A stretch of DNA of 12,796 nt from positions 1 through 12,796 of the forward strand of contig JBHHXQ010000051.1 of NCBI GenBank assembly GCA_046757105.1, in the 5' to 3' direction. This document shows, piece after piece, positions 1,941 through 12,610 of the stretch; the stretch's first letter is position 1; each line of letters begins with the position of its first letter. Position numbers and translations under genes: made by a program. This DNA is from Candidatus Krumholzibacteriia bacterium. Lineage in GTDB: Bacteria; Krumholzibacteriota; Krumholzibacteriia; G020349025. The notes beneath the pieces are model-generated. The model saw nothing but the letters and a program-made list of their open reading frames with translations. It searched no databases and had not been told where the DNA came from.

Positions 1941-2580
1941 TCATCCCGGGACGTCGTTCAGCAGTTCGACGAAATCGAGCGCCGGCTTCGGGGCGCAGCC
2001 CTCGTGCTTGAAGAAGACGAAGACGTCTTCCCACGGATGCGCTCGACCCAGGCGCGGAGATCGTCCGTGCCGTACTCGTCCCGCCGCATGCGCAGATAGC
2101 CGAACCGCGCGGTCGGGACCAGCGGCACCTCGTCCTTGCTGTCGTCGTCCACGATGCAAAGCGCCACACCGTTCGCTCGCAGCGTCTCGTAGACCTCGTC
2201 ATGCTGCCAGGACGGCTCGCGGAACTCGAGCACGGGCCGGCACCGCGGCGGCAGCTGGAAGAGGACCGGTCCGAGCCGGTCACCGAGCACCAGAAGGTTG
2301 CCGAAAAGGTACTCGAGCTCGCCACCCACGTCCCTCAGCCGCTTGAGTGCGTGATCCGCCGCGATGCCTTCACGACGAAACGGAAGTCCTCGGGGACGTC
2401 TGCTGCCCAGCTCGCCAATACCTTCTTCGACGGCATGCGATAGAACGTATTGTTGCTTTCGACCGTATGGAGCCTCTGCGCGTAGAAACGCAGCCACCCG
2501 GAGGCGGCGAGCTCTCGCGGATAGAACCCGGGGCTCCACTGCCTGTAGGAGTAGCCGCTCATTCCGGCATGGATGCGCAT
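1941..2580 (-). pseudogene. DUF72 (UPF0759, YecE-like) family gene disrupted by two frameshifts, or carrying two indel errors
   Basis: The N-terminal piece (2580->2335) reads 'MRIHAGMSGYSYRQWSPGFYPRELAASGWLRFYAQRLHTVESNNTFYRMPSKKVLASWAADVPEDFRFVVKASRRITH', matching the DUF72 N-terminal signature. The middle piece lies in a second frame (inside ORF 1958..2623): '...ALKRLRDVGGELEYLFGNLLVLGDRLGPVLFQLPP...EFREPSWQHDEVYETLRANGVALCIVDDD...FGYLRMRRDEYGTDDLRAWVERIR'. The C-terminal piece lies in a third frame (ORF 1941..2159): 'WEDVFVFFKHEGCAPKPALDFVELLNDVPG*'. The frame changes fall near 2340-2350 and near 2040-2050. The second fits a single-G loss in a G-run ('cgtggg|aagac'). Confidence 0.6.
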
Positions 2581-2697: not shown

Positions 2698-3696
2698 CTA
2701 CGCCGTCGCGCACTCCGGGAGCAGATGCTTCACACCGATGCCGCGCAGCATCCGGTAGGTTGCGCGTAGCTCATCCTGACGCATGAGCTGCGGGTGGTCC
2801 GGGATGCTCCCGGCTTCGACCCAGCGAGGCGGGAAGAAAGCGACCCCCTGGATCAGAGGATAAGGCTCCAGGCCGAGGCTCCGGAAGAACGGGTTCATGA
2901 TGCGCAGGATCTCGTTGCGGCCGCCGTTCAGGAACCGGATGATGTCCACGGCTTGCGGCTTGGCCCACTTCCCGAGGACGTACGTCCGCTGCGGATCCGG
3001 CGCCGCATTGTTGGGCTCGTAGAAGAGCTCGAACACGTCCTGAAGCATGTGGCTGACCTCGGAGGCCCAGTCCAGCCTGCAGCGGATCTGCGTACCCAGG
3101 AACCTCTTGGGAACTCCATCCACATCCTTCAACGGAATCCCGTTGTCGGTGGTGGGCACTCCGGTCGCCAGCGCGAAGCGGTAGCGGTCCTGAGCATCCT
3201 TGAAGCCTTTGGCTTCGATGTAGCCGATCCGCGTGAGCCACGCCGGGCGGTCGAACAGTGGATAGATCGCGCGAACGGCGCGCTCATCCATCTCGCTCAG
3301 CTGACATGGGACGCGGATGAAGCGGTACGGCGCCCGGGTCACCGTCATGACCAGGCCCTCCTCGTCCGACGGCAGGCTGGCGAGACGGGCCCGGAGCTCG
3401 TGGACGCGGGTCTGGACGTCCTCGGTCAGCGCCTTCTTCAGGAGGTCGGCCAACCCCACCGCGTGCGACCTCTTGAGCTGCACCCCGTTCTCGGGCGAAC
3501 GATCGATCTTCTGCACGAGCACGAGGAGCGCCATGCCGCGACGCCCGCTCTCCTCGAGATCTGCGGCGACCCGTCGCAGCTGATCCGCGGTCTTCGGCTG
3601 CAACACCTCCCTGATTCTCGGTGCGCGCCGGAGCAGCGCTTGGATGCGCGCCAGAATCCGGGCGTCCTCGGGGAACAGCTCCTTCGCCAGAGTCAT
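2698..3696 (-). CDS. Hypothetical protein, ~332 aa if started at 3696, extensible to ATG 3870 (~390 aa); no domain recognised
   Basis: This is the C-terminal, protein-like part of the 1015-aa minus-strand ORF 2698..5745; the rest of that ORF is antisense to the + strand operon. From 'MTLAKELFPEDARILARIQALLRRAPRIREV...' onward third-codon positions are G/C-rich like the neighbouring genes. GGTGGGG lies 7-8 nt upstream of ATG 3696. The upstream in-frame stretch 3697-3870 ('MNPYIDASASCVLVTNRSNW...') uses many A/T-ending codons and has no Shine-Dalgarno sequence, so it may be non-coding. Stop TAG at 2698-2700. Confidence 0.5.
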   Translation of the reverse strand: MTLAKELFPEDARILARIQALLRRAPRIREVLQPKTADQLRRVAADLEESGRRGMALLVLVQKIDRSPENGVQLKRSHAVGLADLLKKALTEDVQTRVHELRARLASLPSDEEGLVMTVTRAPYRFIRVPCQLSEMDERAVRAIYPLFDRPAWLTRIGYIEAKGFKDAQDRYRFALATGVPTTDNGIPLKDVDGVPKRFLGTQIRCRLDWASEVSHMLQDVFELFYEPNNAAPDPQRTYVLGKWAKPQAVDIIRFLNGGRNEILRIMNPFFRSLGLEPYPLIQGVAFFPPRWVEAGSIPDHPQLMRQDELRATYRMLRGIGVKHLLPECATA

Positions 3697-4214
3697 CGGT
3701 GTCACCCCACCGGGATTCTCACTTGAAAGAAAGAGCAGCTTCTTGCACGTAGTACTGATCCTGTCACCGAGTTGAGACAAGAAATCCACGGGTTCCACCC
3801 CCCCGAGGCGCCAGTTCGACCTGTTGGTCACGAGAACGCACGAGGCAGAAGCATCGATGTAGGGATTCATGCGCGGGCCACGCAGTTCTTTGTAGCACCA
3901 GCTCGTCTCTGGTGGAAAGCGATTTTTCTCCGTGTCCAGCGCGACCCTGCGACACGCAGAAGCTCCTTGCGAGCCACGAGCACGCCACGCCGCGACAACC
4001 GCAAGCACCCGGCGCGAACTCCCGACAAACCGCGCAGTGTTTCCTCGGACACGTACCAGTCTGAGACACCGCCCCCCTCGGATCCCCGGTTCCTGCGGCG
4101 TTCTGAATCCAAAATGAAATCGCCGCCGACATGCGTCCCGCGTGCGACGATTCCGGCGCACGAACGAGCTGCGGCAACCGCAGACGAATCCAACCGCAAG
4201 CGAGGAGGTGTCCG

Positions 4215-4442
4215 ATGTCGGAAACCCAGGTGAAGACAGCGCGCGTCTCGGTTCTCTCCGAAGGCGAGTACGAAGTTCCCGTGCCGTCCGGGAGACCGAT
4301 GAAGCTGTCCGCGCTGCTGGACGAGCTGGGGCTCGCGAACAGGGGCGGCCAGCTCTACATGGACGGAGCCCCGGTATCTGGCAACGCCACGGTGAAGCCG
4401 GGAAGCGAAACCGTGGTGCTCCCGCACATCCGCGGGGGCTAG
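4215..4442 (+). CDS. ThiS/MoaD-like beta-grasp (ubiquitin-like) small protein with C-terminal Gly-Gly
   Basis: ATG 4215 is preceded by AGGAGG at 4204-4209 (5-nt spacer). The 75-aa product is 'MSETQVKTARVSVLSEGEYEVPVPSGRPMKLSALLDELGLANRGGQLYMDGAPVSGNATVKPGSETVVLPHIRGG*'. This follows the ThiS/MoaD pattern (xLSALLDELGL...DGAPV...PGSETVVLP..GG) with GG immediately before the stop. It is the first gene of an operon that ends with an E1-like enzyme. Confidence 0.75.
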   Translation: MSETQVKTARVSVLSEGEYEVPVPSGRPMKLSALLDELGLANRGGQLYMDGAPVSGNATVKPGSETVVLPHIRGG

Positions 4443-4455
4443 CCGATCCACGACG

Positions 4456-4488
4456 GTGCGGGGGCCGCGCGCCGCGGCTGCCCGCACC
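4456..4488 (+). promoter_or_regulatory. Stable intra-operon hairpin immediately after the Ubl gene (possible attenuator/partial terminator or processing site)
   Basis: 'ggtgcggg' (4456-4463) pairs with 'cccgcacc' (4481-4488). The intervening 'ggccgcgcgccgcggctg' is itself near-palindromic. It begins 14 nt after the Ubl stop codon, within the 112-bp gap before gene 2. Confidence 0.3.
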
Positions 4489-4554
4489 GGTCTCGAGATG
4501 CCAGCTGCGCCCGTTCTTCCGGGTGCCGCGCACCTGCTTCCAGGGGGAAAGCCC

Positions 4555-5127
4555 ATGTTCGACCTCGTCGTGAGCCAGAGCGCCCCGCCGGCGCACGTGC
4601 GGCATCGGGCCGTCGCGCTCCTGGCCGGTGTGCTGGCGACACAGGCGGCGCTGGCCTACGCGGACGTACGGCGCCGCCGAGACTATCTCCTCTCGGAGAT
4701 CGCAAGCGGTTCTCAGAACCACCTCAGGATCCTGGACGTCGATCTGCAACGGGCCGAGTCGCTTCTCGATGCGCTCGAGCACATCGCCCACCACCCCGAA
4801 TCGGAGGCGTCGGCCCGGCTGCGACCCCTCCTGCAGCTGGTGGGTGGCCCGGTGCAGACGATCGAGCTCGCCACCGACCGGCTCGGCGCGCGCGTGACAC
4901 CCAGCCATGCCCGCGACCGCAACCTCCGCATCCTGCTTCTTCCCGAGGGGGCGCGCCGCCGGCGCGTGCAGATCCAGGACCTGGACCGGGTCGACCCGCA
5001 AACGCTGCGCAATGCCGCGCCGCGCTGCTATGGCGAGCTCGGCCACTCGTACATCGCCTGGGCGCTCAACCGTTTGGACATGCGCTCGCTCGTCCTCATC
5101 GCGTTGGCGTACCTGAGGGTCAACTGA
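4555..5127 (+). CDS. Hypothetical protein (~190 aa), second gene of the Ubl-E1 operon; function unknown
   Basis: ORF 4456..5127 frame. ATG 4555 follows GGGGGAAAG (Shine-Dalgarno-like, 3-nt spacer). The product begins 'MFDLVVSQSAPPAHVRHRAVALLAGVLATQAALAYADVRRRRDYLLSEI...'. Same strand as the Ubl gene, 112 bp downstream of it. No recognisable catalytic motif. The start could be further upstream (GTG 4456, ATG 4498) but that would overlap a strong hairpin. Confidence 0.5.
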   Translation: MFDLVVSQSAPPAHVRHRAVALLAGVLATQAALAYADVRRRRDYLLSEIASGSQNHLRILDVDLQRAESLLDALEHIAHHPESEASARLRPLLQLVGGPVQTIELATDRLGARVTPSHARDRNLRILLLPEGARRRRVQIQDLDRVDPQTLRNAAPRCYGELGHSYIAWALNRLDMRSLVLIALAYLRVN

Positions 5128-5239
5128 GAAACCGGGGGCACGCCACCGCGGACGCCGGCGGCGCTCGCAACGACGAGCTGCGACACCCGCCTCGCCCCGC
5201 AGGACGCGCGTCATCCCCCAGTCCCGTGGAGGTCGCCTC

Positions 5240-6085
5240 ATGCTGCGGCGCTGGAACGAGTTCCTCCGGACACTGAACATCCGGGGACATCTCTTCGACC
5301 AGGACGGCCCGTACTCGATCATGCTCGGGAGCCGGCTCCTCAACCGCTCCATCTTCGCCCTGCGGACGGCCATATTCGGCGCCTGCATGGCGGCTCGCGA
5401 GACGTTGCGCAGCGCCGGCGACGTCCGCGAGCCAATGCTCATCGCCGATCCCGGCGCGGCGCGGCGCGCCTTCGAGAATGTGCAACGGGAGGGCGACCTG
5501 CTGCTGCTCGAGGATCTCCTGGAGGTCTTCCTCCCCACCGCGCTCCTGTACGAGACGGGATCCCCGCACGGCGAGACCGTGACGGTCGGGTTCCGCGACG
5601 AGGCCGCTCCCAACAAGATCCTGAAGGGACTGACCGCCGCCGGAGAGGTCGAGGATCCGCACAGGTACCGGGCGATGGGCGACGTCTTGCTCGTCCCTCC
5701 GGCCGTTCGCGGCGAAGGCCGCAAGCGCGGCCACTGGATCCGCACCTGCCAGCTCGACCCACCGCTGTGGAGCGAGCACGGCGGCCCCTACTGGCGGCTC
5801 GGCCAGTGGAACCTCTGGCGGCTCGACGTGCTCGGTTGGCACGAGCGTCTGGCGCTGGCCGCGCTGGTCGGGACGTCCGCCGAGGCCGCCGTCGTTCTCG
5901 GGCCGCCGAACCTGTTCCCGCACATCGGCTTCGTCGCCGAGGTCGCCCGCGAGATGGGACGCACGCTGATCGGTGTGCCGTTCGAGGCATGCCCGCCGGA
6001 GCTCCGGCTGGATCTGGAAGAGGCACGCCGGCGCAGTCTGTCGAGCGTGCAGCGCATGTTCAGGTTGTTCGAGGGGGTCATCTGA
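5240..6085 (+). CDS. Hypothetical protein (281 aa), third gene of the Ubl-E1 operon; tentative UBC/E2-like active-site motif around Cys170
   Basis: ATG 5240 is preceded by GGAGG at 5227-5231 (8-nt spacer). Stop TGA at 6083-6085. The segment 'DVLLVPPAVRGEGRKRGHWIRTCQLDPPLWSEHGG' loosely resembles the E2 'PP...HPN...G.ICLDIL...WSP' active-site region. This is pattern-level resemblance only. Confidence 0.6.
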   Translation: MLRRWNEFLRTLNIRGHLFDQDGPYSIMLGSRLLNRSIFALRTAIFGACMAARETLRSAGDVREPMLIADPGAARRAFENVQREGDLLLLEDLLEVFLPTALLYETGSPHGETVTVGFRDEAAPNKILKGLTAAGEVEDPHRYRAMGDVLLVPPAVRGEGRKRGHWIRTCQLDPPLWSEHGGPYWRLGQWNLWRLDVLGWHERLALAALVGTSAEAAVVLGPPNLFPHIGFVAEVAREMGRTLIGVPFEACPPELRLDLEEARRRSLSSVQRMFRLFEGVI

Positions 6086-6152: not shown

Positions 6153-6812
6153 GTGGATGGAATCGAGAGCGACGTGCTGCGGCTCGAGGATGTCGAAGTG
6201 ACGCTGGTGGGCGCCGGGCGCGCCGGGAGCCAGATCGCACTCGTGCTCGCTCAGCTCGGCGTGCGGCAGCGCATCTACGACGGCGACCGCCTCGGGCCGG
6301 AGAACCAGGGACTGCAGCTCTACCGCAAGGAGGACGTGACGGCCGGGAAGCAGAAGGTCGAAGCGCTCCGGGAGCACATCGGCTCCATCGTGCCCGAGAG
6401 CTGCATCGAAGTGCACGCAGAGGCCTTCGAGGCGCGCGAGGACCAGCGACGCTCACCGGTCGTGGTGATTGCGGTCGACACGATGGAGACGCGGCGTCGC
6501 CTCTGGGAGCGCCTCAAGAACGCCAAGGGCATCCTGCGGCTCCTGGACGTGCGGCTCGGCCGCGCCCTCGTGCGCCTGCACGAGGTGCGGCCGTCGCACC
6601 CGCAGGACGTCGCCGACTACGAGGCTTCGTTGCACGACGACGCGGTGGCTGCGGCGGCCGACTGTGCCGATGAAGCCACGACGCACGCGGCGGCCGCGGC
6701 TGCGGCTCTCGTCGGAGGCGCTCTGCGGGGCCTCGTCGACGACCTGCCGCGGCCGCGCTGGATCGCGCTCGACCTCGACCGGGCGATCTGGGCGAGCGGC
6801 AAGACGACGTAG
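6153..6812 (+). CDS. Minimal ThiF/MoeB/E1-like adenylyltransferase (219 aa)
   Basis: The product begins 'MDGIESDVLRLEDVEVTLVGAGRAGSQIALVLAQLGVRQRIYDGDRLGPENQGLQLYRKEDVTAGKQKVEALREHIGSIVPESCIEVHAEAF...VVVIAVDTMETRRRLWERL'. This is a Rossmann GxGxxG, followed by the acidic D.D, the N.Q/R/K ATP-phosphate region, and the 'AVDT' Mg-site Asp in E1-family order and spacing. No CxxC zinc pairs and no rhodanese domain are present. A single late Cys sits in 'AADCADEA'. GTG 6153 is the first start after in-frame TGA at 6129; the Shine-Dalgarno sequence is weak. Stop TAG at 6810-6812. Confidence 0.8.
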   Translation: MDGIESDVLRLEDVEVTLVGAGRAGSQIALVLAQLGVRQRIYDGDRLGPENQGLQLYRKEDVTAGKQKVEALREHIGSIVPESCIEVHAEAFEAREDQRRSPVVVIAVDTMETRRRLWERLKNAKGILRLLDVRLGRALVRLHEVRPSHPQDVADYEASLHDDAVAAAADCADEATTHAAAAAAALVGGALRGLVDDLPRPRWIALDLDRAIWASGKTT

Positions 6813-6871: not shown

Positions 6872-8887
6872 CTACTGGAGCAACAGCATCTTCTTCGTGA
6901 AGCTCTGCGAATCCGTCTCGAGCCGGTAGAAGTACAGGCCTGAAGCGACCCGCTCACCGCGCTGGTCGACGCCGGTCCAGATGATCTCGTGTGTCCCGGC
7001 CACACGGCGCGTGTCCAGAAGAGTTCGAACCAGGGACCCCCTTGCATCGTAGATCTGCACGAGGACTTCGGACGGCCGCGCGAGGCCGAACCGTATGCGT
7101 GTGAGCGGATTGAACGGATTCGGACGGTTCTGCTCCAGGTAGGTGATCCAGGGTATGCTCTCGGTTCCGGTCGCGTACTCCGTGACGTCGCAGAGAATCC
7201 AGTGGCCGGGATCGAACTCGACACCCGTGACCGGATCGTCCAGCTCGACGAGAAACGCCTCGGTACGATCACCGACCCACAAGAGCGTGTCGATCTGCTG
7301 AACCGTAGTCGTGATCCGGAAGTCCACCGGCATCGTGTAGAGCTCCGCCTGCAGCTGGTCGATCACCAGACTCAAGTTCGTCTTGCCTTGCCAGGGATAG
7401 GAGTGCCAGGTCCATCTGTACTGCAGGCGATCCTCTCGGGTGAGCCATTCGTCGAAGAACCAGTCCAGTGGCGCGCCGTAGACGTCCTCGCAGACCCCCT
7501 CGAAGTCGTCGGTGCCGGCCATGCCGAAACGGAAGCGGGGATCGGCCACGTAGCTCTGCAAGATCTGGACGAACGAGCCGTCGCCGACGATGTGGCGGAG
7601 CATGTGCAGGACCCAGGCCGCCTTGTTGTAGACGACGTTGTCGAAGTAGTACCAGCGATCGGTCGCGTCCGGGTCCCGGAGGATCGGCCCCTGCCATTGG
7701 CCGGGCCGGTCTTTGCCCTCCATGTACGACCTGAGCTTCCCGGCGCCCTCCAGGTGCTCGAACCACAGCGCCTCGGCGTAGCTCGCGAATCCTTCATTCA
7801 GCCAGATGTGCGTCCAATCCTTGCAGGTGATGAGATCGCCGAACCACATGTGGGCCAGCTCGTGGGCGAAGACCCAGTCATAGGAATGGTTTCCGGTGAC
7901 GAGGGCAGAGCCATAGCTCGTGAGGGTCTGGTGCTCCATGCCGCCGCCGAGGTTGCAGAGGGCCACACCATACTTCTCGTCGACGAAAGGGTAGGACCCG
8001 AACGTCGTAGAGAAGAAGTCGAGCATCGGCACGGTGACGTTGAAATCCTCCTCGGCCGCAGCGACCAGGTCGGGATAGACGTAGTGAGTCACGGCCATGG
8101 TTTCCCCTGGGGCGTGAACGAAGGAGTCGTCCAACCGCACGTATTCCGAGGCGGCGATCGACGCCAGGTACGTCGCCATGGGGTAGTTCTCCCGCCAGTG
8201 GAATCGCCTGTAGGGGACTCCCCAGCGCGTCACATCCTCAGATCCGAGATGATCCCCGTTCGAAGCGGCAAAGAGGACGGCGGGAACGGCGAGATACAGA
8301 TCGAAGGTGGCCTTGTCGTCCGGATAGTCCTTGCACGGCCACCACGACCTGGCGCTCCAAGGCTCGCTCAACGAGAAGATCACCGGCGTCCCTTGATGGG
8401 TTGCGAAGAACAGCCCGGGGGCGCTGGCCGATCCCGGATTGCCGCCGAAACCGATCTCGATCGCGATCGAGTCGCCATCGGCGAGACCGGCGGGCAGGTG
8501 GATCGAGACCAGATCGGCCGGGCGACTCCACGCGAGCGTATCGCCGCCGGCCACCGTCACGGATGAAACGGTCAGGACATCGTCGGCGTCCAGATCGATC
8601 GTGTGGAGGCTGTCCACGAGGCTCATCACGGTGGCTCTGACGTAGCCCTCGACCGCCTGGTTGCCGGGGTCGAATGCCAGATCGAGTTCGTAATGCAGCG
8701 CGTCGAAGAGCAGTTGCGTGGGCGTCGGGCTCGGCGCGAGAAGAGCCTCGTGTCCCGGTCGCAGCTTCGCCCTGGCGATCTCCATCTTCCGGAGGATGTC
8801 GCCGTGGACGTCCTCGAGTGGAGCCTGGGCGAAAAGGGGAGCCGAAAATGTCGAGATGAACAGGGCTGCCAGAAGTGCAGGTCTCAC
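6872..8887 (-). CDS. Secreted M1-family aminopeptidase (aminopeptidase N-like) with a C-terminal T9SS (Por) sorting domain
   Basis: 671-aa ORF. N-terminal signal peptide 'MRPALLAALFISTFSAPLFAQA'. 'GGMEH' exopeptidase motif. Zinc site 'HELAHMWFGD...WLNEGFASY' (HEXXH-18-E). C-terminal ~85 aa 'NRPNPFNPLTRIRFGLARPSEVLVQIYDARGSLVRTLLD...GTHEIIWTGVDQRGERVASGLYFYRLE...KKMLLLQ' matches the Por secretion C-terminal sorting domain pattern. GTG start at 8887 with GAGGA upstream. Confidence 0.9.
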   Translation of the reverse strand: MRPALLAALFISTFSAPLFAQAPLEDVHGDILRKMEIARAKLRPGHEALLAPSPTPTQLLFDALHYELDLAFDPGNQAVEGYVRATVMSLVDSLHTIDLDADDVLTVSSVTVAGGDTLAWSRPADLVSIHLPAGLADGDSIAIEIGFGGNPGSASAPGLFFATHQGTPVIFSLSEPWSARSWWPCKDYPDDKATFDLYLAVPAVLFAASNGDHLGSEDVTRWGVPYRRFHWRENYPMATYLASIAASEYVRLDDSFVHAPGETMAVTHYVYPDLVAAAEEDFNVTVPMLDFFSTTFGSYPFVDEKYGVALCNLGGGMEHQTLTSYGSALVTGNHSYDWVFAHELAHMWFGDLITCKDWTHIWLNEGFASYAEALWFEHLEGAGKLRSYMEGKDRPGQWQGPILRDPDATDRWYYFDNVVYNKAAWVLHMLRHIVGDGSFVQILQSYVADPRFRFGMAGTDDFEGVCEDVYGAPLDWFFDEWLTREDRLQYRWTWHSYPWQGKTNLSLVIDQLQAELYTMPVDFRITTTVQQIDTLLWVGDRTEAFLVELDDPVTGVEFDPGHWILCDVTEYATGTESIPWITYLEQNRPNPFNPLTRIRFGLARPSEVLVQIYDARGSLVRTLLDTRRVAGTHEIIWTGVDQRGERVASGLYFYRLETDSQSFTKKMLLLQ

Positions 8888-9390: not shown

Positions 9391-9413
9391 AGCAGTGAGG
9401 GTCGGTGGAAGCC

Positions 9414-9791
9414 ATGGAATACCTCATCGACACGAAGAGCGGCGTTCCCTACTACCGCCAGATCATCGAGCAGGTGAAGTTCGCCATCGCCCGGGGCGAG
9501 CTGCAGCCGGGGGACCAGCTGCCGACCGTGCGACAGCTCGCCGTCGACCTTCGCATCAATCCGAACACCGTAATCCGCGCCTACAGAGAGCTGGAGATCG
9601 GCGGCGTCCTCGACACCCAGCAGGGGGCCGGGACGTTCGTCGGCCGGCACCGCCCCGAGATCGACCAGCTCGAGAGGCAGCGGATGCTCGACCAGATCCT
9701 GACCGAATTGTTGGCTCGCGCTTCCACCTACGGCTTCTCGTTGGAGGAAGTCCTGGAGGGGCTGCGCCAACACAAGGAGGCGTCGCCATGA
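9414..9791 (+). CDS. GntR-family (YtrA-like short form) transcriptional regulator
   Basis: 'MEYLIDTKSGVPYYRQIIEQVKFAIARGELQPGDQLPTVRQLAVDLRINPNTVIRAYRELEIGGVLDTQQGAGTFV' is a classic GntR winged-HTH, followed by a short ~50-aa helical tail. ATG 9414 is preferred, with GGTGGA 4 nt upstream. GTG 9405 is an alternative start. Stop TGA at 9789-9791 overlaps the downstream ATG (ATGA). Confidence 0.85.
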   Translation: MEYLIDTKSGVPYYRQIIEQVKFAIARGELQPGDQLPTVRQLAVDLRINPNTVIRAYRELEIGGVLDTQQGAGTFVGRHRPEIDQLERQRMLDQILTELLARASTYGFSLEEVLEGLRQHKEASP

Positions 9792-10930
9792 GATCCGAGT
9801 CCAAGACCGGCGCGATGGGAAAGGCCCTCCCGGGATTCTCCCTCGAGAAGTTCGCCCTCACCATGCGCGCCGATTACCGTTTCGCGCCCGTCAACGTGCT
9901 GATGCTGGTGGCGATCTTCCTGATCGGCCTGACCGTGCACCTGAACCTGCACCCCTTCAGCGTGCAGGCGGTCGTCCTGAGCCTCGGTTCGGCGCTGGCC
10001 CTTTCGGCGCTGTTGCGATTGACCCAGGTCTGGGAGGCCATGGTCGTTCTCGGAACCGCGGATGGCTTGATCACCTACCTCGTGCTGCGGCCGGGAAGCG
10101 AGGTGCTTCTGGTGACCATCGCCGTGGCTCTGCTGGTGGCCCCGTCGATCCAGATCGCCTATCAGTGGGAGCGTGCGGTGCTGCTGCGCTTCGGCAAGTT
10201 CAGGGGGTTGCGGCAGTCCGGCCTGTTCCTGGTGGTCCCGATCATCGACAAGGTGGCACAGTTCGTCGATCAGAGGATCCGGGTCACCGACTTCAGCGCC
10301 GAGACCACGCTGACCTCGGACACGGTTCCGGTGAACGTGGACGCCATCGCCTTCTGGATGGTCTGGGACGCCCAGAAGGCCGTGCTCGAGGTGGAGCACT
10401 TCGACCAGGCGGTGATCCTCTCGGCCCAGACCGCTCTGAGAAACGCCATCGGCAAGAACGCCCTCGCGGACCTGCTTTCCGAGCGCGATCGGCTCGGCCA
10501 CGAGATCCAGAAGGTCCTCGACGAGAAGACCAGCGCCTGGGGGATCACGACCGAGGCGGTGGAGATCCGGGACATCACCATCCCGAAGGGGCTCGAGGAC
10601 GCAATGTCGCGCCAGGCCCAAGCCGAGAGAGAGCGGCAGAGTCGCATCATCCTCGGTACGGCCGAGACCGAGATCGCCGAGAAATTCGCCCGCGCGTCGG
10701 AGTACTACCAGGATAACTCGGTGGCTTTGCACCTGAGGGCGATGAACATGGTCTTCGAAGGACTGCGGCAGAAGGGGTCGATGATCATCGTTCCCTCGAC
10801 CGCCGTCGAAACGATGGGCCTGGGAGCCCTCGGCGGCTTGACCGCCTTCGGCCGTGGCTCCGGGGAGACTCCCGAGAATCCCGGTCGACCGCACCGAGAC
10901 GACGATTCTCCGTCCGATCCGGAAGATTGA
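9788..10930 (+). CDS. SPFH/band-7 (stomatin/prohibitin-like) membrane protein
   Basis: In frame with ORF 9395..10930. N-terminal hydrophobic segments ('VNVLMLVAIFLIGLTV', 'VVLSLGSALALSALL', 'VLLVTIAVALLVAPSI') are followed by the SPFH core 'YQWERAVLLRFGKFRGLRQSGLFLVVPIIDKVAQFVDQRIRVTDF...VNVDAIAFWMVWDAQKAVLEVE...' and a coiled-coil 'QAQAERERQ'. Translationally coupled to the GntR gene. Confidence 0.85.
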   Translation: MRSESKTGAMGKALPGFSLEKFALTMRADYRFAPVNVLMLVAIFLIGLTVHLNLHPFSVQAVVLSLGSALALSALLRLTQVWEAMVVLGTADGLITYLVLRPGSEVLLVTIAVALLVAPSIQIAYQWERAVLLRFGKFRGLRQSGLFLVVPIIDKVAQFVDQRIRVTDFSAETTLTSDTVPVNVDAIAFWMVWDAQKAVLEVEHFDQAVILSAQTALRNAIGKNALADLLSERDRLGHEIQKVLDEKTSAWGITTEAVEIRDITIPKGLEDAMSRQAQAERERQSRIILGTAETEIAEKFARASEYYQDNSVALHLRAMNMVFEGLRQKGSMIIVPSTAVETMGLGALGGLTAFGRGSGETPENPGRPHRDDDSPSDPED

Positions 10931-11003: not shown

Positions 11004-12317
11004 CTACATCCTCTCCCGAAGGGAAGGCTGCAATACGAGGTGCAATCCGAAACCGATCTCGAGGTCTGCGAGCCCGACGGCTTCGTCATCGATGCCGACG
11101 TTCGCATCGAGCGCCACGACGGGATCGGGGAAGAATCGCAGTCCCATCGTGAACTCGAGCAGACTTTCGACGTCGACCTTCCCGGTGCTCGCGCCGAACG
11201 TGATCAGCGGTGACGAGCGAACCTCGGTCAGGAAGAACGTTTTGGGGTTGGCGGCGAAGTCCATGCCCAGCCCGAAGCTCGTGTGCACCAGCTTGTTCGG
11301 GAGCCCCGTCGCGAACTCGCCGCTGGGCGAGGAGAACCGGACCCCGTCGATCCTCATGTCGGTCGCATGCACAACCGCGTGCAGACGCGTTCGGCGCAGG
11401 GCGAGTGTCGCCGCGAGCCCTGCGGTGGTTTCGCGGTGTTCGTATGTGAGCTGATCTACCGGAATACCATCTTCACTGGTAAAGGGTCTGTTCGTGCTGA
11501 ATTGATTGTCGTCGGTCGCGGCGACATTGAACGCCACGTTCAGGCGCTCCTCGAGCTCGCGGCTCGCCCATGCGACCGGCACGCGGATGCGAAATCCGAT
11601 CAACGCCTCCGACTCTGGATCGATGATGTGCACGATCCGCGAGGAGGAAACGACAGCCTCACCGACTCCACCAAGCCCCAGGGAGACGACCCAACGTTCG
11701 TTGCGTTCGTCGTCGCTGAATCCGAATGACAGACCACCACCGGCATGCACTACAAGCGACGGAATGATGTCCCCTGTCGGCGAATCGAACAGGCGTGGTG
11801 GCAGGATCAAGGCCTTTGGACGAACCGTGAACGGTGGCTCGAAGCCAGAAGAGGACCCGGGTGCAGCCTGCTGCTGCACGCTTTCCTCCACGACAACGGG
11901 GATCACCGGAGCGACCTGGGCGGAAGCCGGGGTGAGGCTGCTTTCTGCTGTCGGCGCCGCTGCAACGCCAGCGCTGTCGAATGCGGCCACTTCGCCTGCG
12001 CGCTCCGTACTTCCCGCGCTCGCCGGGAGAGGGTGTGTACAAACCCCGGTCCCACACCTGATGCAGTAGCTCGCGTCCAGAGGGAGCAAGAGGCCACACC
12101 GCCAGCAGTACACCCCCTCCTTTGCAGCCGTCGGCTTGCCACACGCGTGGCAGTAGAATGCACCCTCCGGGTTGGTGGCGTCACAGTGCGCGCAAAGGAC
12201 TTCCGCGGCAGACGGAGCGTCGACGGACGGCGCGATCACAAACGCCAGAGCCAGCACGCAAGCGCTCGCCACGATCGATTGTCTTGTAGTGCACAGCGCG
12301 CCACGACCCGTCATCAT
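11004..12317 (-). CDS. Hypothetical exported/membrane-anchored protein with N-terminal double zinc-ribbon (2x CxxC...CxxC) and a beta-rich C-terminal domain
   Basis: ORF 11004..12323. ATG at 12317 has GGAGG 8 nt upstream; GTG 12323 is the alternative start. Hydrophobic segment 'SIVASACVLALAFVIAPSV'. First zinc ribbon 'CAHCDATNPEGAFYCHACG', second 'YCWRCGLLLPLDASYCIRCG'. An Ala/Pro/Ser-rich linker follows, then ~250 aa of alternating hydrophobic pattern. Stop TAG at 11004-11006. Confidence 0.65.
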   Translation of the reverse strand: MMTGRGALCTTRQSIVASACVLALAFVIAPSVDAPSAAEVLCAHCDATNPEGAFYCHACGKPTAAKEGVYCWRCGLLLPLDASYCIRCGTGVCTHPLPASAGSTERAGEVAAFDSAGVAAAPTAESSLTPASAQVAPVIPVVVEESVQQQAAPGSSSGFEPPFTVRPKALILPPRLFDSPTGDIIPSLVVHAGGGLSFGFSDDERNERWVVSLGLGGVGEAVVSSSRIVHIIDPESEALIGFRIRVPVAWASRELEERLNVAFNVAATDDNQFSTNRPFTSEDGIPVDQLTYEHRETTAGLAATLALRRTRLHAVVHATDMRIDGVRFSSPSGEFATGLPNKLVHTSFGLGMDFAANPKTFFLTEVRSSPLITFGASTGKVDVESLLEFTMGLRFFPDPVVALDANVGIDDEAVGLADLEIGFGLHLVLQPSLRERM

Positions 12318-12610
12318 GACCACAACCTCCTGGAAGGGTTTGATGCGCTTGAAAGTGTCGAGAGATGACGGGCCCTGTCAACCCACGGTGCACCGACAGA
12401 GCACCGACAGCCCCGGGCTCGCCGGACGCCATCCCAACGCGTTGCATGGCAACACGTTGCACCCCCAGCCCAGCCGAGGGATTCAAGGGGTCCGGTGCAC
12501 CGCGCAGGCCGTTCGGAGAACTGAAAGCCAGACCCCACCGAAGACAACGAGAGGGTTCCTCGTGACGCGGCAGGTGCGACCGGGTCCATGGCGCACCTCC
12601 TGTGCCCGCG

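Follow-up and report, generated by a model that had tools for sequence, protein, structure and literature searches.

The 12,796-nucleotide stretch of Candidatus Krumholzibacteriia DNA analysed here (the window) carries a minus-strand open reading frame (ORF) that stands back to back with a Ubl-E1 operon, and this arrangement raises two questions: where the gene begins, and whether its product works with the operon. The stop codon lies at 2698-2700, and an in-frame ATG at 3870 gives a 390-amino-acid reading within a 1015-aa antisense ORF. The features referred to below on the target side of the locus are as follows.

2698..3789, minus strand: target coding sequence as revised, 363 codons, GTG start at 3789-3787 and stop at 2700-2698
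2701..3378, minus strand: C-terminal core domain of the target, a bundle of four helices to which two beta-hairpins and an extended tail are added; invariant motifs FDR, TG and RNxIxxxxN
3697..3789, minus strand: AT3-rich stretch encoding the N-terminal 31 codons that are absent from the public annotation; overall GC 0.51; homologous to the N-termini of relatives
3790..3882, minus strand: predicted 5′ leader of the target mRNA, holding a Shine-Dalgarno (SD)-like GGGGGGG at 3798-3804 and the in-frame, probably unused ATG at 3870; the transcription start position is inferred
3870..3879, minus strand: 10-mer GGCCCGCGCA, within the near-palindrome GCGnGGCCCGCGC, a candidate operator or 5′ element whose last A is the A of the ATG at 3870
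3889..3918, minus strand: predicted sigma-70-type promoter of the target, with a -35-like TTTCCA (3913-3918) and, across an 18-nt spacer, the extended -10 TGcTACAAA (3889-3897)

The target is a real gene on the minus strand. Between 2701 and about 3700 its frame has GC1/2/3 values of 0.68/0.43/0.86, in line with the G/C3-rich codon usage that the original prediction had described below 3696, and the peptides quoted there are found in the ORF. The remainder of the 1015-aa ORF (3871-5745) has a GC3 of only 0.62 and negative codon log-odds on the minus strand, and it runs antisense to plus-strand genes with homologues. Only the 3′ third is therefore a gene, as had been proposed, and beyond the target the long ORF is a GC-rich antisense artefact.

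The alignments make the GTG at 3789 the likeliest start, giving a protein of 363 aa. A profile of 16 homologues, from which the window was left out, aligns with high posterior probability from S32 of the 390-aa reading, and every full-length homologue starts at the column of V28, which is the GTG at 3789. In all 12 loci compared (12/12) the start is preceded, at a distance of 6-8 nt, by a G-run resembling an SD site, the copy in the window being at 3798-3804. The ATG at 3870 is thus probably too long a start and the ATG at 3696, used in the NCBI annotation (P0001, 332 aa), probably too short, so that each places the upper boundary wrongly; the public annotation is 31 codons short of the revised gene. 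Three other nearby start codons fit less well: GTG 3798 sits within the G-run and has no spacer, TTG 3780 is 17 nt away from it, and GTG 3831 lacks an SD site and would add residues found in no homologue. The annotation of one homologue, P0005, errs in the other direction, being about 63 codons too long.

The region around these start codons had first attracted attention by its composition, and the anomaly is real and beyond chance. Over 3697-3870 the GC content is 0.55 and GC3 0.67, lower than in any of the 2226 windows of equal size taken from nine genes of the contig (minimum 0.72); over 3697-3789 GC3 falls to 0.58, against a minimum of 0.65 among 2469 windows of 31 codons in the same nine genes. 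The original prediction had read the whole of 3697-3870 as either a mis-called extension made of promoter DNA or a recently acquired leader, and this is right only in part, the stretch being heterogeneous. The segment 3790-3870 is most likely non-coding leader: the leaders of the close pair L001/L003 differ in length by non-multiples of 3, and residues 1-26 of the 390-aa reading are modelled with an AF2 pLDDT below 50. The segment 3697-3789, on the other hand, shares homology with the N-terminus of every relative and so is neither promoter DNA nor recently acquired; judged by this alignment, it truly encodes the N-terminus and is ancestral. Within the gene, mRNA structure is weakest in the windows at 3780-3701, and the 5′ dip in composition is also seen in relatives, but more weakly. 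The AT3-rich first 31 codons probably represent the normal low-structure 5′ end of a true coding sequence, exaggerated in this genome.

A promoter inside 3697-3870, as had been envisaged, finds no place in this arrangement, since the predicted promoter lies upstream of 3870 with its -10 hexamer at 3889-3894. An anchored alignment, inspected by eye, points to a layout of TTGAyC, 17-18 nt and TGnTAnnAn that is common to seven loci (L001, L003, L005, L006, L014, L015 and L022), from which we infer a conserved promoter at about 3889-3918. A consensus promoter scanner returned no promoter in the region, and Rfam and tRNA scans of it gave no match. The conserved TGGTA motif was also considered as a sigma-54 element, but on visual inspection its GG-to-GC spacing is wrong. 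The non-coding 10-mer GGCCCGCGCA is identical in 9 of 10 close loci, where it lies 54-67 nt ahead of the start (90 nt in the window). The intergenic region between target and operon, which holds both the promoter-like layout and this element, is conserved and spans 360-580 bp, and CTGA motifs are repeated upstream of the Ubl gene.

The genes on either side of the target are the following.

1958..2580, minus strand: DUF72 gene (Pfam DUF72), directly downstream of the target
4215..4442, plus strand: Ubl, 75 aa, putatively beta-grasp-type, ending in ...PHIRGG, with the SD sequence GAGGAGG upstream
4555..5127, plus strand: X, 190 aa, of no named family, with an invariant Cys in PRC[YF]G (alignment A3)
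5240..6085, plus strand: Y, 281 aa (about 290 aa in the family), of no named family, with invariant R163, E179, R186, E202 and T212
6153..6812, plus strand: E1, a short adenylating enzyme of the ThiF family, with one domain; conserved motif DCAD

Homologues of Ubl have 71-79 aa and all end in IRGG, the C-terminal GG being invariant, and sub-threshold SAMP2/ThiS matches were obtained for 7/7 members (best E 5e-5). E1 matches Pfam ThiF (E 6e-15), PADLOC E1-E2 and NCBIfam ThiF-type models, and its nearest PDB sequences are PaaA, UBA5, TcdA and Cap2 at E about 1e-4; across loci it has 219-257 aa and one ThiF domain. The pairing expected of ThiS/MoaD-ThiF/MoeB systems, a ThiF-family E1 beside a GG-ended beta-grasp protein, is present here, judged by the Pfam ThiF match on one side and by the GG end and weak ThiS/SAMP2 matches on the other. 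Neither X nor Y matched Pfam, NCBIfam, PADLOC or PHROGs, and sequence-profile searches of the PDB returned only designed coiled coils or noise for both. X has an invariant Cys, no invariant His and no sequence match to E2, CEHH or BilB; its place in the operon corresponds to that of E2 in Bil, and by this analogy X may be E2-like. Among 19 sequences of Y neither His nor Cys nor Ser is invariant at any position, so that no DUB is recognisable. Comparison by hhalign revealed no relationship for the pairs Y-E1, Y-target and X-target; Y is not an adenylation-domain paralogue. The DUF72 gene of this contig is split over three reading frames (tblastn with the DUF72 proteins of L005 and L014), and a literature search on DUF72 yielded nothing useful.

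The target had been put forward as a candidate partner of the Ubl-E1 operon, and its genomic context bears this out. The divergent target / Ubl-X-Y-E1 arrangement occurs in 11/11 distinct informative loci down to 24% target identity (the window, L001, L003, L005, L011, L013, L014, L015, L019, L021 and L022, each with at least about 600 nt upstream, and with X, Y and E1 scored only as far as each contig extends). L009 and L012, with too little upstream sequence, were left out of this count, and in L006 the first Ubl codons are seen at the contig end. Linkage is kept at 24-28% target identity in L011 and L013. DUF72 follows the target in closer relatives only: MatE takes its place in L013, and the L011 contig ends before that position. 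The outer flanks vary between lineages while the block stays intact. A search starting from Y recovers the target again, and a related-locus search with alignment A1 returned one genome locus (a duplicate of L001) and five metagenome loci. Widespread housekeeping homologues lacking Ubl/E1 neighbours would speak against a partnership; the family proved instead to be rare and always linked. Between the same loci, identity is 44-50% for the target, 40-53% for Y and 64-70% for E1, so that target and Y diverge faster, as is usual for specificity components.

Members of the family span Krumholzibacteriota and Latescibacterota, and the flanks are of housekeeping type, for example a nuo operon beside the block in one complete Latescibacterota genome. 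In these two related phyla the block seems to descend vertically, which sets it apart from the sporadic occurrence typical of defence islands. It corresponds to no known defence model and to no defence-island or mobile-element location, PADLOC matching E1 only, and searches of plasmids and phages gave no match.

The target protein is all-alpha and consists of an N-terminal helical domain and the C-terminal four-helix-bundle core, which is modelled with high confidence (AF2 pLDDT 94). That it belongs to no nameable family, as had been noted, is upheld by the absence of any match in Pfam, NCBIfam, PADLOC or PHROGs; a PDB sequence-profile search found only designed coiled coils or noise, and Foldseek with the full-length model found nothing in the PDB at E<=1e-3. 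The family comprises 30 matches at E<=1e-3 among 1.84 billion representatives, and a homologue search from the core alignment A6 returned only two proteins, both already found. Net charge and pI, considered as a test for nucleic-acid binding, are inconsistent across the family.

Two ideas about catalysis can be set against this model. The RGIGVKH sequence at the end of the protein had been offered as a weak hint of a HEPN motif, and the R-x5-H pattern is indeed present in the window. It is a lineage feature, however: in P0005 and P0007 a Tyr stands in place of the His, more distant members vary at this position, across 17 sequences neither the Arg nor the His is invariant, the invariant motif RNxIxxxxN contains no His, and comparison with solved HEPN domains revealed no qualifying structural similarity. 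The HEPN reading fails because R-x5-H is not conserved, and a HEPN-type RNase effector, for which R-x4-6-H is the defining motif, is accordingly very improbable. An effector role in general, also suggested earlier, is unsupported: the searches revealed in the target neither an enzymatic domain nor a group of residues that looks catalytic.

An indication of function comes from distant relatives of the core. In P0025, P0026 and P0029 an HNH domain lies ahead of it (the N-terminal part only matching the PADLOC SAVED_HNH / CBASS endonuclease effector), P0030 has an LmuA/Avs2-type N-terminus, and P0033 and P0035 carry TIR/bSEFIR domains. All of these align to the core with its invariant R, G, R, N and N, and in each the core is C-terminal, behind a TIR, SEFIR, HNH or REase domain. 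Such defence-type effector domains are found only in distant relatives of the core. The C-terminal position behind such effectors is usually that of a domain which senses a trigger or ligand. The core is an unnamed module, interchangeable behind TIR, SEFIR, HNH and REase effectors, and as such likely a sensing or regulatory domain, not yet catalogued, of bacterial conflict systems. Its small cluster of invariant Arg and Asn residues resembles a binding site more than it does a catalytic centre; R208, R318, N319 and N326 (numbered as in the 390-aa reading) are among the invariant positions. The architecture recalls the sensor-effector fusions of CBASS, Thoeris, Lamassu and bSEFIR systems (Cap5 HNH-SAVED, TIR-SAVED, LmuA, bSEFIR), which share the same N-terminal domains. 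It differs from them in that the core is neither a SAVED or STING domain nor another named sensor, and in that the target carries no enzymatic effector domain of its own and has no second-messenger synthase linked to it.

Among Ubl pathways the closest parallel is with Bil (BilABCD, formerly 6C/6D), where a small Ubl with a C-terminal Gly also accompanies a ThiF-family E1, and where the order Ubl-E2-DUB-E1 parallels Ubl-X-Y-E1 here, the second gene product having a conserved Cys. In Bil a once unrecognisable 'CEHH' protein turned out to be an E2 (PMC10557695), and type 6d likewise includes an alpha-helical protein that diverges rapidly and has charged residues conserved (Iyer et al. 2006; PMC1779556). 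Unlike Bil, the present operon has no JAB/JAMM match in any protein, its E1, about 220 aa long, has one domain and lacks the IAD-AAD-CYS architecture, an extra partner (the target) is divergently transcribed, and the surroundings are not those of a defence island. Bub (6E/DUF6527) is another Ubl/E1 pathway of bacteria that has diverged, and sequence comparison at first failed to recognise its E2 and peptidase. It is defined by a DUF6527 serine protease together with Ubl-E2 or E2/JAB-E1 fusions (PMC11601596), whereas the module described here has no DUF6527 (PF20137) match and no Ubl-E2, E2-E1 or JAB-E1 fusion, and its Ubl has a single, predicted beta-grasp domain.

On the basis of synteny and domain architecture, we propose with a probability of roughly 40% that the five genes form one module, a diverged Ubl activation and probably conjugation system in which the target serves as a sensor or adaptor without being an enzyme. 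By adenylation E1 would activate Ubl at its Gly-Gly end, X would be the likeliest thioester carrier, and the target would act as a non-enzymatic sensing or specificity subunit whose output is the Ubl machinery, engaged via the family-specific N-terminal helical domain, instead of a fused enzyme. The sensor role follows from the position of the core behind TIR, SEFIR, Cap5-like HNH and LmuA/Avs2-like nucleases, where a sensing domain normally sits. Weighing against the module are the absence of a recognisable DUB, an X that is not demonstrably an E2, the ordinary chromosomal surroundings with no plasmid or phage match, and the chance that the Ubl/E1 pair is a sulfur carrier rather than a protein modifier; as for the sensor, the shared core could merely be an oligomerisation bundle. 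A bolder version is more doubtful: DUF72 (whose membership is questionable), target and Ubl-X-Y-E1 might constitute an undescribed class of bacterial Ubl conjugation system with X as a sequence-unrecognisable E2, Y as a new accessory such as a ligase or a non-JAB peptidase, and the target bearing a new trigger-sensing four-helix bundle, conjugation being switched on by a signal such as phage infection or stress.

Divergent transcription is commoner for regulators than for structural subunits, and the target could instead control the Ubl operon and itself, transcriptionally or post-transcriptionally, through intergenic elements such as the GGCCCGCGCA copy at its own transcription start. CapW/BrxR, CapH+CapP and CapK/CapS, which lie upstream of bacterial immune operons, offer precedents; the target, too, lies upstream of an operon, here of Ubl type and divergently transcribed, with conserved motifs in the intergenic region that they share. 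The long conserved intergenic region between the genes fits this reading, as do the position of the 10-mer just past the conserved extended -10, the CTGA repeats and a three-helix 'L..LL....GVTP..LA..L' pattern at the target N-terminus that is reminiscent of an HTH; Bub and Bil operons often have upstream regulators (PMC11601596, PMC10557695). Unlike those precedents, however, the target has no detected HTH, WYL, protease or kinase domain, and no DNA-binding fold, such as a wHTH with a basic recognition helix, was recovered. Regulation is a rather unlikely role. Unlikelier still is that the target is a dedicated Ubl-modified substrate, or an accessory of ThiS/MoaD-type sulfur transfer with Ubl as the thiocarboxylate carrier. 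Archaeal SAMP/UbaA and Thermus TtuB/TtuC, with ThiS/MoaD-type modifiers, provide the model: the Ubl of the present module resembles SAMP2/ThiS and its free GG end needs no processing, its E1 is a minimal ThiF, and no canonical E2 or E3 is recognisable. SAMP and TtuB systems function with E1 alone, and the lack of a JAB or DUB and the core-genome appearance of the vertically inherited block are in keeping with this. The module nevertheless adds X, Y and the target, and its E1 has no rhodanese or CxxC zinc site. Against both versions, no invariant lysine is found among 17 full-length relatives; no rhodanese, sulfurtransferase, ThiG/MoaE, CysM, JAMM or biosynthetic enzyme occurs in the conserved block of any locus, and fusion of the core to TIR, HNH and REase elsewhere is hard to square with a metabolic accessory. 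Finally, the loci all belong to a narrow range of Krumholzibacteriota or Latescibacterota-like lineages known from uncultured bacteria, so part of the synteny reflects shared ancestry, and DUF72 is likewise conserved beside the target in closer relatives. It is nonetheless improbable that inherited synteny is the whole explanation, with a target function separate from the operon, because the link in the 11 loci outlasts both the DUF72 neighbour and the outer flanks, and because the target and operon-side families are similarly rare.

In practical terms, the start of the target needs correction in the public annotation. For bacterial Ubl pathways (CBASS type II, Bil and Bub), protein conjugation was demonstrated only recently, and each new type has brought unexpected chemistry or unrecognisable E2 or DUB folds. 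With a clear Ubl and E1 and three conserved partners that have no detectable relatives, the module described here is a compact candidate for a further type. If the conjugation-system reading is true, the target family would supply it with a new sensing domain, the same one that would gate TIR, SEFIR, HNH and REase effectors in other bacteria.

The gene transcribed divergently from the Ubl operon (the target) was originally read as the 3′ part of a 1015-aa minus-strand ORF, and the composition of the sequence bears this out. The ORF is present (2698..5745), and position-specific GC in its frame is coding-like only from 2701 to about 3700 (GC1/2/3 = 0.68/0.43/0.86). GC3 in this frame is 0.62 upstream of 3870, where codon log-odds are negative and the ORF lies antisense to four plus-strand genes, all of which show a GC3 signal of their own and have homologues. 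The window is one entire contig of 12,796 bp from a Candidatus Krumholzibacteriia MAG with a GC content of ~65%, so long spurious ORFs are frequent. The features of the contig are as follows.

2-1408: PAS-type sensor histidine kinase (H-box by eye), truncated at the contig's left end
1958-2580, minus: DUF72 gene directly downstream of the target, spread over three reading frames and ~18 aa short relative to homologues
2698-3789, minus: target gene
3870-3879: invariant 10-mer GGCCCGCGCA, inside the near-palindrome GCGnGGCCCGCGC, immediately following a conserved TGnTAnnAn that resembles an extended -10
3889-3897 and 3913-3918: predicted target promoter, TGcTACAAA and TTTCCA, respectively (by eye in an anchored alignment)
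about 4040-4130: repeated (T/C)CTGA ... CTGAGAA motifs and a TGCATGAT motif
4215-4442, plus: Ubl, 75 aa, ending ...PHIRGG, with the SD GAGGAGG upstream
4555-5127, plus: X, 190 aa
5240-6085, plus: Y, 281 aa
6153-6812, plus: E1, short ThiF-type
6872-8887, minus: M1-family aminopeptidase, convergent with E1 and carrying FlgD_ig / Por_Secre_tail at its C-terminus (a T9SS-type sorting domain)
9405-9791 and about 9800-10930: GntR-family regulator, then SPFH/Band-7 protein
11004-12323: double-zinc-ribbon protein, 439 aa

The start of the target is placed at GTG 3789-3787 (363 codons) by three concurring lines of evidence. Whether 7 or 17 full-length relatives are aligned, the first residue of every homologue falls at the V28 column (numbering of the 390-aa reading from ATG 3870), and conserved R37, T41, L45 and P58 precede the NCBI start M58. 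An HMM of 16 homologues, built with the window left out, aligns from S32 (HMM position 4) with maximal posterior probability, and 3697-3777 therefore encodes homologous protein. A G-run Shine-Dalgarno-like element precedes the proposed start by 6-8 nt in 12/12 loci (GGGGGGG at 3798-3804 in the window, 8 nt from the GTG), and the homologue at L019 also starts with GTG. Several findings speak against ATG 3870 as a start: its A is the last base of the invariant non-coding 10-mer, which has no following ATG in nine other loci, the leaders of the close pair L001 and L003 are unequal by 2 nt, and AF2 models the first 26 residues of the 390-aa reading at pLDDT <50. The family alignment contradicts the public gene calls. 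For the window protein (3696; P0001, 'hypothetical protein ACE5G2_03330', 332 aa) the NCBI call is short by 31 N-terminal codons, while the public call for the relative P0005 (420 aa) is ~63 non-conserved codons too long (L001 10001-10189), this extension also being non-coding given the unequal leaders of L001 and L003.

The compositional anomaly noticed at the 5′ end is real. Across 3697-3870 the GC is 0.55 and GC3 0.67, and across 3697-3789 GC3 is 0.58, both GC3 values falling under the minimum for same-size windows in the nine contig genes (0/2226 and 0/2469 as low, respectively). The suggestion of a recently acquired leader does not stand, as the first 31 codons are ancestral and homologous to the relatives' N-termini. 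These codons are lower in GC3 than the remainder in 8/8 homologues tested (0.65-0.84 vs 0.76-0.91), with the window the extreme case. That coding regions are selected for weak mRNA structure at their 5′ ends is well known, and the weakest-folding 60-nt windows of the whole target mRNA lie at 3780-3701 (-7.9 to -9.8 kcal/mol; mean -19.3). The simplest reading is that the AT3-rich codons reflect such selection, which would not fully cover the effect size in this genome.

Between the divergent genes, GGCCCGCGCA is found 54-67 nt upstream of the target start in nine other loci (those listed are L001, L003, L005, L006, L014, L015, L021 and L022) and could act as an operator or as a 5′ element in the RNA. 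Upstream of it, an anchored alignment read by eye displays a conserved sigma-70-like layout (TTGAyC, 17-18 nt, TGnTAnnAn) that the promoter scanner missed. Because of this promoter-like layout at 3889-3918, a target TSS is predicted near 3880-3885; the leader is about 90 nt in the window, ~30 nt longer than at other loci. The CTGA repeats and TGCATGAT are kept 100-150 nt before the start of Ubl in the window and the L001-L022 equivalents and are possibly the promoter or operator of the Ubl operon; no Rfam family matches the region upstream of the Ubl gene. The gap from the Ubl stop to the X start, in which nothing was detected, is unusually long for an operon junction (112 nt, 4443-4554; 100-190 nt at other loci).

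The target had been proposed as a partner of the Ubl/E1 operon from its position, and synteny favours such a functional link. Ubl is divergent from the target in 11/11 distinct loci, each extending at least about 600 nt upstream (window, L001, L003, L005, L011, L013, L014, L015, L019, L021 and L022), and X, Y and E1 follow where the contig extends; the L006 contig stops inside the first Ubl codons. The result is a conserved divergent five-gene unit, or six with DUF72 in closer relatives, and a search starting from Y recovers the same arrangement. It is kept at 28% (L011) and 24% (L013) identity, with MatE in place of the downstream DUF72 in L013 and the L011 contig ending before the DUF72 position. 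Outer flanks vary by lineage around an intact block, which adjoins the nuo operon in the complete Candidatus Latescibacterota chromosome CP070763.1, one of the loci recovered from Y, and the target was not found in plasmid and phage collections. In its context the block resembles a chromosomal module passed on vertically more than it does a mobile defence island.

The histidine kinase, GntR, SPFH/Band-7 and double-zinc-ribbon genes of the window are not kept beside the block in other loci. FlgD_ig-tailed proteins also border it in L012-L016. MacB-type ABC transporter genes (FtsX/MacB_PCD and ABC_tran) lie just past E1 in L001/L003 (4300-7150) and near the target in L009 (2209-3414), and are absent from the window and L014/L015. 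The window DUF72 gene has either become a pseudogene or been broken by errors in the MAG assembly, which its three frames make possible in this contig.

Within the operon, 7/7 members of the Ubl family give sub-threshold SAMP2/ThiS matches, and E1 is very divergent, its top PDB sequence matches being PaaA, UBA5, TcdA and Cap2 (E about 1e-4). X and Y have no database match, and no relationship of either to E1 or the target was found. In X, a Cys is invariant within PRC[YF]G. In Y, R, E, W, R, E and T are invariant across 19 sequences with no invariant His, Cys or Ser, and Y is therefore neither a JAB nor a classical protease.

Scans of Pfam, NCBIfam, PADLOC and PHROGs give no match to the target, and PDB sequences give none that is meaningful; of 1.84 billion representatives searched exhaustively with a profile, only 30 proteins reached E<=1e-3. 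A full-length AF2 model (7 sequences; pLDDT 74, moderate) has two helical domains, the first of them N-terminal. Remodelling residues 165-390 with 32 sequences (pLDDT 94.4, pTM 0.89) yielded a four-helix bundle that also bears two beta-hairpins, a long stretch in extended form and a helix at the C-terminus. Every relative keeps R in the FDR motif, G in the TG motif, and R plus both N residues in RNxIxxxxN.

Distant relatives P0024-P0035 align only to this C-terminal core (profile positions about 161-316), and their N-terminal domains differ. The core follows an HNH domain closest to CBASS Cap5 / SAVED-HNH effectors in P0025, P0026 and P0029, an LmuA/Avs2-type nuclease N-terminus in P0030, and TIR or bSEFIR domains in P0033 and P0035; in P0024, P0028 and P0032 it is N-terminal instead, with C-terminal extensions of no known identity. 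PADLOC matches in these proteins are limited to the N-terminal effector parts, placing the core at the usual position of a sensing or regulatory domain, and it probably binds a ligand or partner.

The module is not Bil, lacking a JAB, an IAD-AAD-CYS E1 and a recognisable E2; nor Bub, lacking DUF6527 and fusions (PMC11601596); nor CBASS type II. With SAMP/TtuB-type systems it shares the minimal Ubl and E1 pair, but adds three conserved unknown proteins. The once-unrecognisable CEHH protein of Bil turned out to be an E2 (PMC10557695), and the 6d operons of Iyer et al. 2006 include an alpha-helical protein that diverges fast and in which charged residues are conserved (PMC1779556), a conceptual parallel.

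Function is inferred throughout, from the sequence, a single domain model of high confidence, the domain architecture and synteny among a narrow set of uncultured bacteria. As the role of the target we tentatively favour (probability roughly 0.4) a non-enzymatic sensing or specificity subunit, mainly because of the core's position behind effector domains. A regulatory role exerted through the conserved intergenic elements would fit the HTH-like three-helix pattern at the N-terminus, and we consider it unlikely. Slightly less probable again is that the target is a dedicated substrate or assists a sulfur-carrier pathway, which the weak ThiS-like matches of the Ubl would fit. That the linkage is inherited synteny alone is improbable given its conservation in every locus, and a HEPN RNase, hinted at in the original prediction by a C-terminal R-x5-H, is very hard to credit, since that pattern is not conserved and the invariant RN motif has no His.

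No description of this Ubl-X-Y-E1/target module was found in the literature searched, and we rate it as a bacterial Ubl/E1 operon in which the accessory proteins are novel. Ubl would be adenylated by E1, and X may carry it as a thioester, given its invariant Cys and the place of E2 in the Bil order Ubl-E2-DUB-E1; as a sensing or specificity subunit, the target would couple a signal or substrate to this Ubl machinery.
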